In this document: one piece after another, positions 33,997 to 41,147 of the stretch
Numbering within the stretch: the first letter of the stretch is position 1
How the letters are laid out: the number at the start of each line of letters is the position of its first letter
DNA from: Minisyncoccota bacterium
GTDB taxonomy: Bacteria > Patescibacteriota > Minisyncoccia > Phycocordibacterales > UBA6065
Reading direction: 5' to 3'
Assembly: GCA_035714745.1 (NCBI GenBank)
Contig: DASTLR010000014.1
Location: 30,861-94,860, forward strand
DNA: 64,000 bases
The notes under the pieces: model-generated
What the model was told of the DNA's origin: nothing
Seen by the model: the letters and a program-made list of their open reading frames with translations, nothing else
Database searches by the model: none
Program-made: the position numbers and the translations under genes

Positions 33997-36105
33997 ATGA
34001 TTGTGCCCATGGCAAGCCTATCAAAGAGCCCATTCAAGCTCGAGACCAAATATCAGCCGGCCGGGGACCAGCCCCAGGCCATCAAGGCGCTCGTCGAGAG
34101 CGTCCGGAAAGGCGCGCGCCACCAGACCCTCCTCGGCGTGACCGGCTCGGGCAAGACCTACGCCGCCGCGAACGTCATCCAGGAGATCGGCAAGCCCACC
34201 CTGGTCATCGCCCACAACAAGACCCTGGCCGCCCAGCTGGCCCAGGAGTACCGCGAGTTCTTCCCGCATAACGCCGTGCACTACTTCGTCTCGTACTACG
34301 ACTTCTACCAGCCCGAGGCCTATATGCCGGTGACCGACACCTATATCGAGAAGGAGGCCATGATCAACGAGGAGATCGAGCGCCTGCGCCACGCCTCGAC
34401 CCAGGCCCTGCTGACGCGCAAGGACGTCATCATCGTGGCCTCGGTCTCGTGCATCTACGGCCTGGGCTCGCCCGAGAACTACGAGAAGGTCAACATGAAG
34501 GTGGCCAAGGGCGCCAAGGCCGACCGGGCCGAGATGATCCGCCGCATGGTCGGCATCCATTTCGAGCGCACCAACGCCGACCTGGCCCCGGGCCAGTTCC
34601 GCGCCGTGGGGAATATGATCGAGGTCATGCCGGTGAACGAGAAGGCCGTCTACCGCATCGCCTTCGAGGGCGACTCCGTCTCGCATATCGACCTCATCGA
34701 CGCCGTGACCCGCCGCATCGTCCGCGAGCTGGACGTCTTCTACCTCTTCCCGGCCAAGCACTTCATCACCGACAAGGACCAGGTCGAGCGGGCCTTCCAG
34801 TCCATCAAGGCCGAGCTGGACCAGCGCCTCGAGGAGCTGAAGAAATCCGGCAAGAACCTGGAGGCAGAGCGCCTGAAGCGCCGCACCGCCTACGACCTGG
34901 CCATGATCCGCGAGGTCGGCTACTGCAACGGCATCGAGAACTACTCGCGCCACTTCAGCGGCAAGCTGCCGGGCGAGCCGCCTGACAGCCTGCTTTCGTA
35001 TTTCCCGCACAAGGCCGACGGCACGCCTGATTTCCTGACCGTCATCGACGAGTCGCACGTCACCATACCGCAGCTCCGCGGCATGTTCGCCGGCGACCAG
35101 AGCCGCAAGGACACCCTGGTCGAGCATGGCTTCCGCCTGCCCTCGGCAAAGGACAACCGCCCGCTCCGCTTCGAGGAGTTCGAGGAGCGCGTCGGGCCCG
35201 CGGTCTACACCTCGGCCACGCCGGGCGATTTCGAGCGCGAGCATTCTGCCGTCATCGCCGAGCAGGTCATCAGGCCGACCGGGCTCCTGGACCCTATCGT
35301 CGACATCAAGCCGGTGACGGAGAAGGGGGCATACAAGGGCCAGATCTTCGACTCCATCGAAGAGGCGGAGAAGGTCATCGCCAAGGGCTTTCGCGTCATC
35401 CTCACCACTCTGACCAAAAAGATGGCAGAGGACCTCGTCGACTATCTAAAGGAGCGTCGGGTCAAGGCCGAATACCTCCACAGCGACATAAAGACCATCG
35501 ACCGCATCGAGATCCTCACCGAGTTCCGCCGCGGGAAATTCGACGTGCTGGTGGGCGTCAACCTCCTGCGAGAGGGCCTGGACCTGCCCGAGGTCGCCCT
35601 CATCGGCATCCTGGACGCCGACAAGGAGGGCTTCCTGCGCTCCGAGACGTCCCTCATCCAGATCATCGGCCGCGCCGCCCGAAACGCCGAGGGCCGCGTC
35701 ATCGTCTACGCCGACCAGGTCACCGGCTCCATCGAGCGCGCCGTGCGCGAGACCGCCCGCCGCCGCGCCCTCCAGGAGGCCTATAACAGAAAGCACGGTA
35801 TCACGCCGCAGACCATCATCAAGGCAATCAAGTCGATCGCCGACCAGCTCCAGTCCGAGCACCAGAAGGCCGTCAAGGAGCAGATGAAGATCGACGAGGA
35901 GCTCTTCGCCAAAGATCCAAAGGGCTTGATCAAGAAGAAGGAGGCCGAGATGAACGAGGCGGTGAAGATCCTGGATTTCGAAAGCGCGGCACTGCTGCGC
36001 GACGAGATAGAGGAGCTCTACGAGAAGCTCGAGAAGGTAGAAGAGGGAAAGAAGCCGAAGAAAGAAGAGAAGGGAAGGAAGTTGAGTGGGAAGGAGAAAG
36101 AGTAA
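33997..36105 (+). CDS. uvrB: excinuclease ABC subunit B
   Basis: [25 protein letters not shown] Walker A, helicase motifs, and C-terminal UVR motif. K/E-rich tail at the island junction. Confidence 0.9.
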
Positions 36106-36124
36106 AGAATTTATTTACTATTAT

Positions 36125-37003
36125 ATGAACGACAAAGATATTAAAGAAAAAGCAATCTTCGTTGTTGGCTTACTGGCCGCTTTCTTAGCTTTTAGTGCTT
36201 TTAAGGAAGAACTCTCGAAAATAAGTCTGATTATCTTTGGTAGTAATTTTTCACTACTGGGGATAATGATTTTCTTTGCAATCTTACTTTCGATTTCTGT
36301 CTATTTATATGCGCTCGATTATTTACGATATAGTTTGGGTAAGTATCAAAATTTTTTCATACTTCGTTGGATAATTCCTCTAGGAAACTTCTTCTTTTCT
36401 TTAGCAATTCTGTCTCCAATATTAGTTTTGGTTGCATGGATATTTGGTTCAAAAGAAGTAATTGATTTTGCAGAAAGTCACGCTCAATTCGCTAAGAATT
36501 TGGATGTGATTTTGGGATTAGTCCTAGTAGTATTTAGTATTTTCAATGCATACAAGTTAACAAAGGAGACAAAGCGAACAATTGTTAAGTCTTTTGAGAC
36601 AGTTAGAAGTTTGTATCTACAAAGAGCATTAAAGCTTTTTGAAAACAAGTTTTATACAGAAACCGTAATTGAGGTCTATAAAACACTCGAACAGTTTTTG
36701 AAGGAAAGGATATTTGAAGACAAGGGCCTAACAACCAAGAACTCAGGCATGAGAGAACTTATGGATTTAGTAATCAAAAATAAAGTAATTGATAAAAAAT
36801 ATATTCCACTGATTGAAGATTTAAGAGGTCTTAGAAATAAGGCTGCACACTCTTTAAACCCTGCTTCAAAAGAAGATGCTCAGTTTGCTCTAAATTTAGT
36901 AAAGGAACTTCTTGAAAGCGACGCAGCCCGCTTTGATCTTTATAGCGATGAGGCAGGAGATGAGTGGATTCAAAATCAAATTGATCAAGATAGCGGTAAG
37001 TAG
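36125..37003 (+). CDS. membrane-anchored HEPN/DUF4145-like protein (4 TM + cytosolic R-N-x3-H domain)
   Basis: Four N-terminal hydrophobic helices. C-terminal LIEDLRGLRNKAAHSL fits DUF4145 and HEPN (Rx4-6H, RNxxxH). Confidence 0.5.
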   Translation: MNDKDIKEKAIFVVGLLAAFLAFSAFKEELSKISLIIFGSNFSLLGIMIFFAILLSISVYLYALDYLRYSLGKYQNFFILRWIIPLGNFFFSLAILSPILVLVAWIFGSKEVIDFAESHAQFAKNLDVILGLVLVVFSIFNAYKLTKETKRTIVKSFETVRSLYLQRALKLFENKFYTETVIEVYKTLEQFLKERIFEDKGLTTKNSGMRELMDLVIKNKVIDKKYIPLIEDLRGLRNKAAHSLNPASKEDAQFALNLVKELLESDAARFDLYSDEAGDEWIQNQIDQDSGK

Positions 37004-37010
37004 TTTATAT

Positions 37011-37706
37011 ATGAAAAGCACTAGAAAGCTTTTATGGACTGCATATCTGAATACAAATGAGTGTGACAAACATCGTGAGCTGAAATACTTAAACGTAGGA
37101 GTTCTTTCAAATACTATTGAAATAGTAATTAAACCAAAAACAAGTTATATACTTTTTTCACTACCAGAATCACTCTCTATTGACGACAAGATTTATATCA
37201 TCTGTCTAACAGATATAGTTGAGCAACTTATTCAAATTTTAGCCTGGAGGTATGACATATCGTTATCTTTAAATAGAATTGTTAAGGGGAATCCTAGGGG
37301 AATTAAAGTTCTCTGCTCCGCTATAAAAAGCGACAAGAGATTTACGGCAATATTCCCTTACAATTTAACAGAGAGAAATCAACAGTTACTTGAGGCGTAT
37401 AGTGAAATAACAAATGAAGCTAATAGGGCCTTTAAATTTTTAATGTGCTATAGACTAATTGAGGTTTTATCTGCGGAGTTTAATGAAAAAACAGACAATT
37501 TAATTAAAAAAATTTTTCCGGAAATTAAACTAGTTGAAGATAAAAGGAATCCGAAATTTAAAAGAACTATAATTACGCATATTAGAAACAAAATTCACGC
37601 AACAGATAACAGATATACTTTTCCGCGAAGTGATTTTAATAGAATAATCGAGACCACAAAACCTGTTTTGAGGTCTCTTATTCAAAGAAAATTTGCTAAT
37701 GCTTAA
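37011..37706 (+). CDS. hypothetical protein with second RNK-H motif (possible diverged HEPN-like paralog)
   Basis: IITHIRNKIHATDNRY echoes the RNKAAH of the upstream gene. Alternative start at 36960 has a better Shine-Dalgarno and overlaps the upstream gene. Confidence 0.4.
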   Translation: MKSTRKLLWTAYLNTNECDKHRELKYLNVGVLSNTIEIVIKPKTSYILFSLPESLSIDDKIYIICLTDIVEQLIQILAWRYDISLSLNRIVKGNPRGIKVLCSAIKSDKRFTAIFPYNLTERNQQLLEAYSEITNEANRAFKFLMCYRLIEVLSAEFNEKTDNLIKKIFPEIKLVEDKRNPKFKRTIITHIRNKIHATDNRYTFPRSDFNRIIETTKPVLRSLIQRKFANA

Positions 37707-37711
37707 ATATC

Positions 37712-37996
37712 TTATTGATATTTGTTAAGCCATTTCCAAGCATCCATAGGAAGCCATCCATAGTATGTCTTTGGATTTATTTCCACCAGGAGAAAATGGA
37801 GATCACCTGAACATTTTATGATTTGGTTGTATAGACTTATCACATCCAATGGTGAAACTAAAATGTATGTGGAATGTAGATAATGCCACCAATCTTTGAC
37901 TACGTTTGGGTATAAACCGACTAGATTACTATGGAGAATTACATAGTTGTAGTCTGTTCTATTTGTATCGAATGTTAGTATATAAAATTTATTCAT
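37712..37996 (-). CDS. small hypothetical protein (94 aa, Trp-rich C-terminus)
   Basis: AT-rich ORF convergent with the two plus-strand island genes; overlaps the next ORF by 8 nt. Confidence 0.35.
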   Translation of the reverse strand: MNKFYILTFDTNRTDYNYVILHSNLVGLYPNVVKDWWHYLHSTYILVSPLDVISLYNQIIKCSGDLHFLLVEINPKTYYGWLPMDAWKWLNKYQ

Positions 37997-38369
37997 GAGG
38001 GTTTTCGGGAGTATTTAAAAGAAGTGGATTGGCGATACCTGCAAGTAGTTCGGCGTTTTTGTCTAAGGTATGGTCTTTATCGCCCAAAGCATCAATGAAA
38101 TGTTTTTTAATCTGAAACTCTTCAGATCTTAAGTACTCAGGCTTTGTAAGCATAAAGTACAAGTAAGCAACTATAGATAAAATAACCGGGATAAGCCCAA
38201 TTGCCAGAAAAACTATTTTTAACCAAAGTTCAATGCAAAAAATAGCCGCTCCAAAACTTGGCACAGATATCAAACCACAAAGCCAAAGAGCAGCATTAAC
38301 AGCGCTTTTAACACTTACTTTATTTATTGCACCCGAGGCTTTGAAGACGAAACCCTCAGCCATATTCAT
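37989..38369 (-). CDS. small hypothetical membrane protein (126 aa)
   Basis: Two or three TM helices (LWLCGLISVPSFGAAIFCIELWLKIVFLAIGLIPVILSIVAYLYF); first gene of the minus-strand pair. Confidence 0.4.
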   Translation of the reverse strand: MNMAEGFVFKASGAINKVSVKSAVNAALWLCGLISVPSFGAAIFCIELWLKIVFLAIGLIPVILSIVAYLYFMLTKPEYLRSEEFQIKKHFIDALGDKDHTLDKNAELLAGIANPLLLNTPENPHE

Positions 38370-38507
38370 TAAAGAATATCATCAAGGTCCTGCAAAGACC
38401 ACTAAAATTATTACTTTTATGTTCCATAGGTTCGCCAAACAATACTTCAATATGTTAAACTCCCTCATACCGACCCCTAGCCCCCATGCTCGGGCGTCGT
38501 GCCGTAT

Positions 38508-41147
<2,640 letters not shown>

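Follow-up and report, generated by a model that had tools for sequence, protein, structure and literature searches.

Proteins that combine a HEPN domain with membrane segments have been described before. Anantharaman et al. (2013) recognised three membrane-associated HEPN groups, for which stimulus-dependent degradation of RNA was proposed (PMC3710099, section 15). The architectures in that survey comprise (i) a single transmembrane (TM) segment with a WP signature, (ii) an alpha domain with one TM segment, and (iii) a HEPN domain followed by two TM segments and a Zn ribbon. Csx28, a membrane protein whose HEPN-like domain is cytoplasmic and built of four helices, acts in phage defence (10.1101/2021.11.02.466367). 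In the soluble single-gene HEPN defences Tha and HepS, phage tail proteins serve as the activating signal (PDB 9oik). A passage of the review PMC12948488 names an anti-phage system of phage-inducible chromosomal islands (PICIs), HEPN-TM, in which a HEPN domain and transmembrane segments occur on a mobile element. Here we describe a locus in a 64-kb window (the whole 64,000-nt stretch analysed, from contig DASTLR010000014.1 of a Minisyncoccota bacterium), in which a low-GC islet of four genes, named A to D, separates uvrB from uvrA. Our reading, given a probability of roughly 0.55, is that three or more independently mobile modules (A, B and the D→C pair) make up the islet as a mosaic of recent acquisition, with A acting as a stand-alone membrane HEPN effector.

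The DUF4145-type group of PMC3710099 resembles A: in both, a catalytically intact cytoplasmic HEPN domain is fused to an N-terminal membrane module in a protein of the inner membrane, and the proposed logic, RNA cleavage under the control of a membrane stimulus, is the same. Gene A differs from the groups listed above in its own four-TM signature (SVYLYALDY..RYS.GKYQNF) and in the lack of a WP motif. It is best filed within the established membrane-associated HEPN class, to which it adds a distinct conserved four-TM module joined to a canonical HEPN domain. The preliminary description of this DNA, made from the sequence alone, had put A forward as part of a novel candidate defence or toxin module. 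A defence role is indeed plausible, because homologs of A adjoin known or candidate defence genes (see below), but membrane-tethered HEPN proteins as a class date from 2013.

In its logic A resembles Csx28, the PICI system and the soluble single-gene defences; it differs from these and from other HEPN systems in the features given below. Csx28 has one N-terminal TM segment and a divergent, non-catalytic HEPN motif located at protomer interfaces, forms an octameric pore and needs Cas13b. Gene A combines four TM helices with a canonical Rx4H motif, and its locus holds neither cas13b nor other cas genes. With four TM helices and no Cas13b, A falls outside this family; no Csx28 model matched it, and Csx28 was absent from its top structural matches. 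In comparison with the CARF-HEPN proteins Csm6 and Csx1, which are defined by an N-terminal CARF sensor domain and a type III CRISPR context, A has a TM module at the N-terminus in place of CARF, again with no cas genes, and the lack of a CARF domain places it outside this group too. HepT of the HEPN-MNT (HepT/MntA) systems shares the HEPN fold with A but has no membrane module. Since no nucleotidyltransferase (MNT) adjoins A, it lies outside HEPN-MNT; the preliminary description was right to find no such layout here, as B, C, D and the flanks all lack a nucleotidyltransferase. AbiD, AbiF, AbiV, ApeA, Tha and HepS are soluble, in contrast to the integral membrane protein A, for which sequence membership in any of these families was not detected. 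The PICI HEPN-TM system is reportedly made of two genes for separate HEPN and TM proteins and is said to occur in enterobacterial satellites. Compared by description, A differs in having HEPN and TM parts fused in one protein and in its host, a member of the candidate phyla radiation (CPR). No usable literature on HEPN-TM, or on the MauJ family discussed below, was found beyond the review PMC12948488.

Gene A and its homologs

The product of gene A is a HEPN protein anchored in the membrane, and its Rx4H motif is intact. The NCBI record lists its product as HEU0081039.1, 'HEPN domain-containing protein'. Pfam HEPN (PF05168) matched residues 164-264 with 30.8 bits (gathering threshold 22; E = 3.5e-7). 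The second family suggested by the preliminary description, DUF4145 (PF13643), stayed just below its cut-off (22.2 bits; gathering threshold 23.1), and precomputed matches to it are recorded for three homologs of A (P0003-P0005). In PADLOC and NCBIfam, weak matches covered the HEPN part of Csx1/Csm6 models alone. A competent HEPN domain is expected to have an Rx4-6H motif, a polar residue after the arginine and a conserved acidic residue upstream (PMC3710099). All three features are found in A as R237-N238-K-A-A-H242 (Rx4H) and E183, and in the alignment of 13 A-family sequences E183, R237, N238 and H242 are invariant.

Four hydrophobic segments, at residues ~3-22, 44-74, 83-107 and 120-146, precede the HEPN domain. 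The charges of the connecting loops fit an N-in/C-in topology, and the HEPN domain is therefore predicted to be cytoplasmic. Hydropathy, the AlphaFold2 (AF2) model and the motif R237-H242 thus bear out the preliminary description of four TM helices followed by a cytosolic domain with an R-N-x3-H motif. The AF2 model, built from the 13-sequence alignment, reached a pLDDT (predicted local distance difference test) of 80.6 overall and above 90 across the HEPN domain, which has the expected fold, a four-helix up-down bundle. In Foldseek searches the C-terminal domain matched 2hsb, 1ufb and 1wol with a probability of 1.0 and target TM-scores of 0.62-0.70, and HepT toxins (7ae6, 6m6w, 5yep and 8xdj) were among the structural matches. 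Neither the PDB nor a set of viral models yielded a full-length structural analogue, and the matches to the TM part were generic helical bundles.

Conservation peaks in the region TM1-3, with a mean pairwise identity of 54% versus 40% in the HEPN domain. Its nine invariant residues (S58, Y60, A63, L64, Y66, Q75, N76, F90 and P98) are centred on the motif SVYLYALDY-RYS-GKYQNF, which is conserved in the family on the cytoplasmic face. In the AF2 model, TM4 and the first HEPN helix form one continuous helix (residues 120-173). This helix, together with the conservation of TM1-3, argues against a mere anchoring function of the membrane part. The four-TM module may sense an event at the membrane or envelope, such as phage adsorption, genome injection or membrane perturbation, and the signal would pass along the continuous TM4-HEPN helix. 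RNA would in turn be cut by the cytoplasmic HEPN domain, which probably dimerises to form a composite Rx4H site, and the growth arrest expected to follow would amount to an abortive-infection-type defence.

The A family comprises 13 clusters among 5.8 billion proteins, with 34-57% identity to A. Four independent genomic contexts of homologs were read, and all of them differ from the window and from one another. The homolog in L006 lies with PDC-M49A (E = 9e-233) and PDC-M49B (E = 7.5e-31), with a large serine recombinase nearby. In L004, a KAP NTPase of the PDC-S20/QatA/PifA type (E = 1e-20) is located 14 nt upstream of the homolog. In L002, an OLD/AriA/GajA-like ATPase (E = 4e-26) is convergent with it, and a XRE 'control protein' gene lies upstream. 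No recognisable defence gene was found in the fourth context, L008. Defence-type genes therefore adjoin A homologs in three of the four contexts, and every homolog is more AT-rich than its host surroundings. These AT-rich patches and neighbours are the signature of a horizontally mobile single gene associated with defence islands. No relatives of B, C or D were detected by tblastn near A homologs in the four contexts. Homologs of A were also sought in plasmid and IMG/VR sets, with none found; the phage-genome collection was not searched with A.

In one lineage (L006:3530-7497, also L005 and L007), the A homolog is positioned directly downstream of PDC-M49A/B and an unannotated gene of 201 aa. 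It could be an unrecognised extra component of the candidate system PDC-M49 in that lineage.

A foreign islet between uvrB and uvrA

The DNA of the islet is foreign. Its GC content (36106-38498) is 0.335, compared to 0.600±0.028 in 285 other windows of 2393 nt (minimum 0.527), which corresponds to z = -9.4, and no other low-GC island of this kind occurs within the 64 kb. Directly after the uvrB stop codon, GC drops from ~0.63 to 0.28-0.36. GC at third codon positions (GC3) is 0.30 in A, 0.26 in B and 0.32 in both C and D, versus ~0.9 in uvrB and uvrA (Table 1). Such unameliorated composition points to a recent arrival, with little time for decay. The preliminary description had read the fall in GC as a mark of horizontally acquired DNA, as these values bear out. 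The left limit, at the uvrB stop, is as it stated; on the right, the GC edge lies nearer 38459 than 38498, and the final ~40 nt upstream of uvrA are 70% GC and native-looking.

Table 1. Features of the islet and of its flanks (positions in the window)
Feature	Position	Strand	Description
uvrB	33997..36105	+	702 aa; Pfam UvrB_inter, UvrB, UVR, Helicase_C; GC 0.63, GC3 0.91; host gene, left flank
Low-GC foreign islet	36106..38459		GC ~0.33; from composition and junctions in independent assemblies
Gene A	36125-37003	+	292 aa; starts 19 nt past the uvrB stop
Membrane module of A, residues 1-146	36125..36562	+	Hydropathy, loop charges, AF2 helices
HEPN domain of A, residues ~161-265	36605..36919	+	Pfam, AF2, Foldseek
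HEPN catalytic motif R237-N-K-A-A-H242	36833..36850	+	Within LRGLRNKAAHS, from sequence; R237, N238 and H242 invariant in 13
Gene B	37011-37706	+	231 aa; 7 nt downstream of A
Motif R192-N-K-I-H196 (Rx3H) of B	37584..37598	+	Within HIRNKIHAT; kept in at least 90% of the family, with Y147-R148-x-x-E151 and F204-P205
Gene C	37712-37996	-	94 aa, soluble; 8-nt overlap with D
Gene D	37989-38369	-	126 aa, two TM segments; first gene of the minus-strand pair
Divergent spacer, D start to uvrA start	38370..38507		Last ~40 nt GC-rich, native-looking; putative promoters of D→C and uvrA
uvrA	38508..41147	+	879 aa; Pfam UvrA_inter, ABC_tran; GC 0.62, GC3 0.88; host gene, right flank

Neither Pfam domains of the islet proteins nor gene calls revealed an integrase, a transposase or an MNT domain, in agreement with the preliminary description, which had also correctly placed on the minus strand two small overlapping genes, one for a membrane protein (D) and one for a protein without TM segments (C). 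A search of the islet for boundary or flanking repeats, tRNA genes, Rfam families and structured RNAs gave none. The hallmarks of site-specific integration (an integrase, flanking direct repeats and a tRNA target) were thus not found, the nearest tRNA gene being 13 kb away. No terminator separates uvrB from A, or A from B. The convergent D→C pair now parts uvrA from uvrB, and uvrA would therefore have to use the spacer of ~130 nt for its promoter; no consensus promoter was detected in the D-uvrA spacer.

The source record of the window is scaffold_57 of BAND20-1 (ENA ERZ28572737, a 'Candidatus Paceibacterota' metagenome-assembled genome), in which uvrB and uvrA are called as genes. A chimeric assembly or other artefact was ruled out, as both junctions reappear in contigs from four sibling samples, independent Logan assemblies among them: the left junction is spanned by L011 and L012 and the right one by L009 and L010, at 99.9-100% identity. 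The gene arrangement is identical throughout the sibling samples. Two of these contigs, L009 and L011, end at window positions 36112 and 38490, a few bases from the islet edges. As an unconfirmed hint, such ends fit branching of the assembly graph if some strains lack the islet or carry another one. Exact-protein look-ups of UvrA and UvrB, made for island-free alleles, gave only the island-bearing scaffold.

The insertion site was surveyed in 80 uvrB loci (L016-L095) from reference genomes, in each of which uvrA was located. In most of them uvrA follows uvrB by 11-250 nt, as is usual in Patescibacteria, Bacillota and Actinomycetota. In the closest high-GC relative (L030) the tblastn gap between the two genes is 98 nt, and ~44 nt separate the stop codon from the ATG. 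Many Patescibacteria have a uvrB-uvrA spacer of 0.7-4.8 kb, filled with unrelated content at host GC, including genes for response regulators, histidine kinases and DedA-like and YdcF-like membrane proteins, among others (examples are L018:8031-11214, L031:6998-11782 and L033:8151-9709). On the strength of this survey, the adjacency of uvrB and uvrA is ancestral, the spacer is variable and the four-gene set of the window is not ancestral. An ancestral housekeeping cluster, which the preliminary description had weighed as an alternative to foreign DNA and which would show the same four genes at uniform GC in relatives, was ruled out, as the genes are not conserved at this position in relatives and GC is not uniform. 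Insertions seem to have occurred repeatedly at this junction in Patescibacteria.

Two further observations concern this site. The insert in the spacer of L033 is locally low in GC (0.29 vs 0.39) and holds three small open reading frames (ORFs) without known identity. The last ~65 nt of uvrB in the window (36040-36105) encode a Lys/Glu-rich tail, ~13 residues longer than in L030, over which GC declines; insertion of the islet may have remodelled the extreme 3' end of uvrB.

Genes B, C and D

Gene B carries the IRNKIH motif noted in the preliminary description, seen here as HIRNKIHAT. The same description had called B a paralog-like partner of A. Paralogy was ruled out, the best BLASTP match between the two having E = 2.3 and the hhalign probability being 0.08%. 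A word-indexed search for relatives returned B alone, and an exhaustive HMMER search was needed to recover its family, which at E ≤ 0.001 counts 27 library proteins, one of them the cluster of B itself. Three motifs characterise the family: Y-R-[LM]-[LI]-E (R148, E151), R-[ND]-x-[IV]-H (R192, H196) and F-P (F204, P205). The spacing from R to H, Rx3H, is one residue below the Rx4-6H of HEPN domains, and none of the 27 members had a HEPN-clan Pfam match. Pfam MauJ (PF17419) gave weak matches covering YRxxE...RNxIH in 13 of the 27 (best E = 1.2e-5), all of them below the gathering threshold; B itself scored 14.7 bits against a threshold of 28. MauJ has no known function, and no methylamine-utilisation genes occur near B. 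The family profile had no match among PDB sequences at E ≤ 10. In the predicted secondary structure of B, the N-terminal half is rich in beta strands and the C-terminal half consists of four helices, the third of which ends with R..H. B may be described as a soluble MauJ-like protein and might be a further effector of the nuclease-like or HEPN-like type. It is probably co-transcribed with A, through an accident of insertion alone.

Two other contexts of B homologs were recovered with a 10-sequence subset of the B alignment. In L098 the homolog is divergent from a true lexA across a 70-nt spacer, and its neighbours include genes for an N6/N4 methylase and a restriction enzyme of the TdeIII type. 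The other homolog, in L099, a genome with 29% GC, is situated between a NUDIX gene and a gene for a small membrane protein. No A-type gene was found among the listed ORFs of these two loci; no tblastn with A was performed there. Relatives of B were sought in phage, plasmid and IMG/VR sets, with none found.

The lexA gene beside the B homolog (L098:5257-6675) encodes both LexA_DNA_bind and Peptidase_S24 domains. Members of the B family thus touch SOS genes in two of three contexts (lexA in L098; uvrB/uvrA in the window), which could reflect SOS-linked expression of the family or chance (n = 3). About 3 kb downstream of the B homolog in L099 (9635-10069), an ORF of 144 aa without a Pfam match includes the sequence RKDRNRYIHH, in which R is followed by N and the Rx4H spacing is HEPN-like.

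Genes D and C belong to phage protein families. D matched phrog_27377 (E = 4.4e-21; 76 bits) over profile positions 10-120 of 134, and C matched phrog_1090 (E = 7.6e-5) over positions 2-86 of 90. Both genes are real, although neither was called by the annotator of the ENA source scaffold. C is apparently missing from the NCBI record too, since a single accession number, enough for B alone, falls between those of A and D. Three homologs of D were found (P0016-P0018). In the one D-homolog contig that extends downstream (L097), a C homolog comes next in the same order (41% identity; E = 8e-26), which makes D→C a conserved pair; a XRE regulator precedes another D homolog. Phage, plasmid and IMG/VR sets yielded no relatives of D. 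C homologs were detected by tblastn in two temperate phages: in Clostridium phage CP51, as a lone, counter-oriented gene in the early/lysogeny region, and in a similar region of Bacillus phage phi4B1, where the match is unannotated. A further 18 IMG/VR contigs, with GC of 0.27-0.64, carry a C homolog as a lone gene without D. The D→C pair would be a phage-derived two-gene cassette, resembling moron or superinfection-exclusion-type genes of temperate phages.

In two contigs (L113:2489-3369 and L114), the start of the C-family gene is overlapped by 4 nt by a gene for a 171-aa protein with two hydrophobic segments; that of L113 shows no similarity to D. This suggests that the pairing of a membrane protein with C arose repeatedly, or diverged past recognition. 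The C family (~90 aa) shows a beta-alpha-beta-beta-alpha-beta-like pattern with a near-invariant Y-D closing the first strand. Pfam CRISPR_Cas2 (PF09827) matched 8 of 17 family members weakly (best E = 8e-4). Searched against the PDB, the C profile matched Cas2 at E = 1.5 when built from four sequences and nothing when built from 17. Cas2/VapD-like proteins are similar to C in size and strand pattern, but C has no CRISPR context.

One system or several modules

The preliminary description had treated the four genes as one candidate module. The evidence from homologs speaks for independent modules instead: B, C and D are absent next to A homologs, D→C is kept in L097, and C stands alone in phages. 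Tight packing at uniform low GC, with a 7-nt gap between A and B and the overlap of D and C, and the same four-gene layout in all sibling samples are what a single defence or toxin system would show, with A as effector, B as its paralogous partner and D and C as regulators or immunity proteins. Such a system is nevertheless improbable. B, C and D are missing from all four A-homolog contexts, no A-type neighbour was noted beside B homologs, the profiles of A and B are unrelated, and L097 has D→C but neither A nor B, while phages carry C alone. A narrower version would limit the system to A and B, as a toxin-antitoxin-like pair specific to the islet, in which B is a non-MNT neutraliser or a co-effector of the HEPN toxin A. 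The two genes are closely spaced in one orientation, and no terminator intervenes; HEPN toxins usually need a neutraliser, and A has no MNT partner. No B-like gene was present in the contexts read of the 12 other A-family members, however, B-family members lack an A-type neighbour in the two loci read, and many HEPN Abi proteins (AbiD/F/V, ApeA, Tha and HepS) are single-gene and held inactive without an antitoxin (PMC3710099, PMC11087260). We consider this pair unlikely, though less so than the four-gene system. Under the mosaic reading, with A as a stand-alone effector, low GC and position are all that the modules have in common, and their DNA most likely came recently from low-GC organisms or their phages and entered a permissive uvrB-uvrA spacer of a high-GC Paceibacterota bacterium.

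Somewhat more weight, still short of a serious contender, is given to the view that A is a membrane signalling RNase which tunes RNA stability to envelope stimuli rather than a defence protein, the islet being neutral or niche-adaptive cargo. Such a role was proposed for membrane-associated HEPN proteins by Anantharaman et al. (PMC3710099, section 15), the strong conservation of the TM module suggests sensing of a ligand or stimulus, and the L008 context has no recognisable defence neighbour. Against this, the A family is patchy, horizontally mobile and found in low-GC patches, and the defence-rich neighbourhoods in three of four contexts, one with a serine recombinase, form a pattern expected of conflict systems more than of regulators with housekeeping roles. 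The islet might also be a decaying remnant of a prophage or mobile element with non-functional genes, as would fit the phage families of C and D, the lack of any remaining integrase or repeats, and the splitting of an operon-like uvrB-uvrA pair. This is as improbable as the four-gene system, given that all four ORFs are intact and keep the catalytic or conserved motifs of their families, that identity across samples is 99.9-100%, and that the unameliorated composition implies a recent arrival. Tentatively, and with a probability well short of even, we propose that the A family is a hitherto unrecognised single-protein immune sensor-effector, whose TM module would directly detect phage genome injection or membrane perturbation and switch on the HEPN RNase through the continuous TM4-HEPN helix; secondarily, the B family would be a HEPN-like clade with a shortened, Rx3H motif and a link to SOS.

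It should be noted that several points count against the mosaic reading or its component assignments. The A family is tiny, with 13 proteins and only four independent readable contexts, so guilt by association is weak, and no full PADLOC system model matched A. The 7-nt spacing means that A and B may be functionally coupled within the islet despite not co-occurring elsewhere. Membrane HEPN proteins have been proposed for stimulus-dependent RNA turnover as well as for defence (PMC3710099). The single-sequence AF2 model of B had a pLDDT of 38.6 and gave an unusable fold. The C protein of the window itself had no match to PF09827, and the Cas2/VapD-like assignment of the family is a lead drawn from sub-threshold matches.

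These results bear on how such loci are read. In these genomes accessory genes appear to land repeatedly in the conserved uvrB-uvrA spacer, and a compositional island can be a mosaic of unrelated cassettes, which calls for caution in equating adjacency with a 'system'. Cheap tests could be applied to two uncharacterised families, the MauJ-like B family with its Rx3H motif and the phage-borne D→C pair. CPR/Patescibacteria live as episymbionts, have tiny genomes with few CRISPR or other known systems, and their immunity is poorly understood. If the proposed role is correct, A would be among the few candidate defence genes traced in these bacteria. It would represent a compact one-protein link from a membrane event to RNA cleavage and would provide CPR bacteria with a compact abortive-infection defence.

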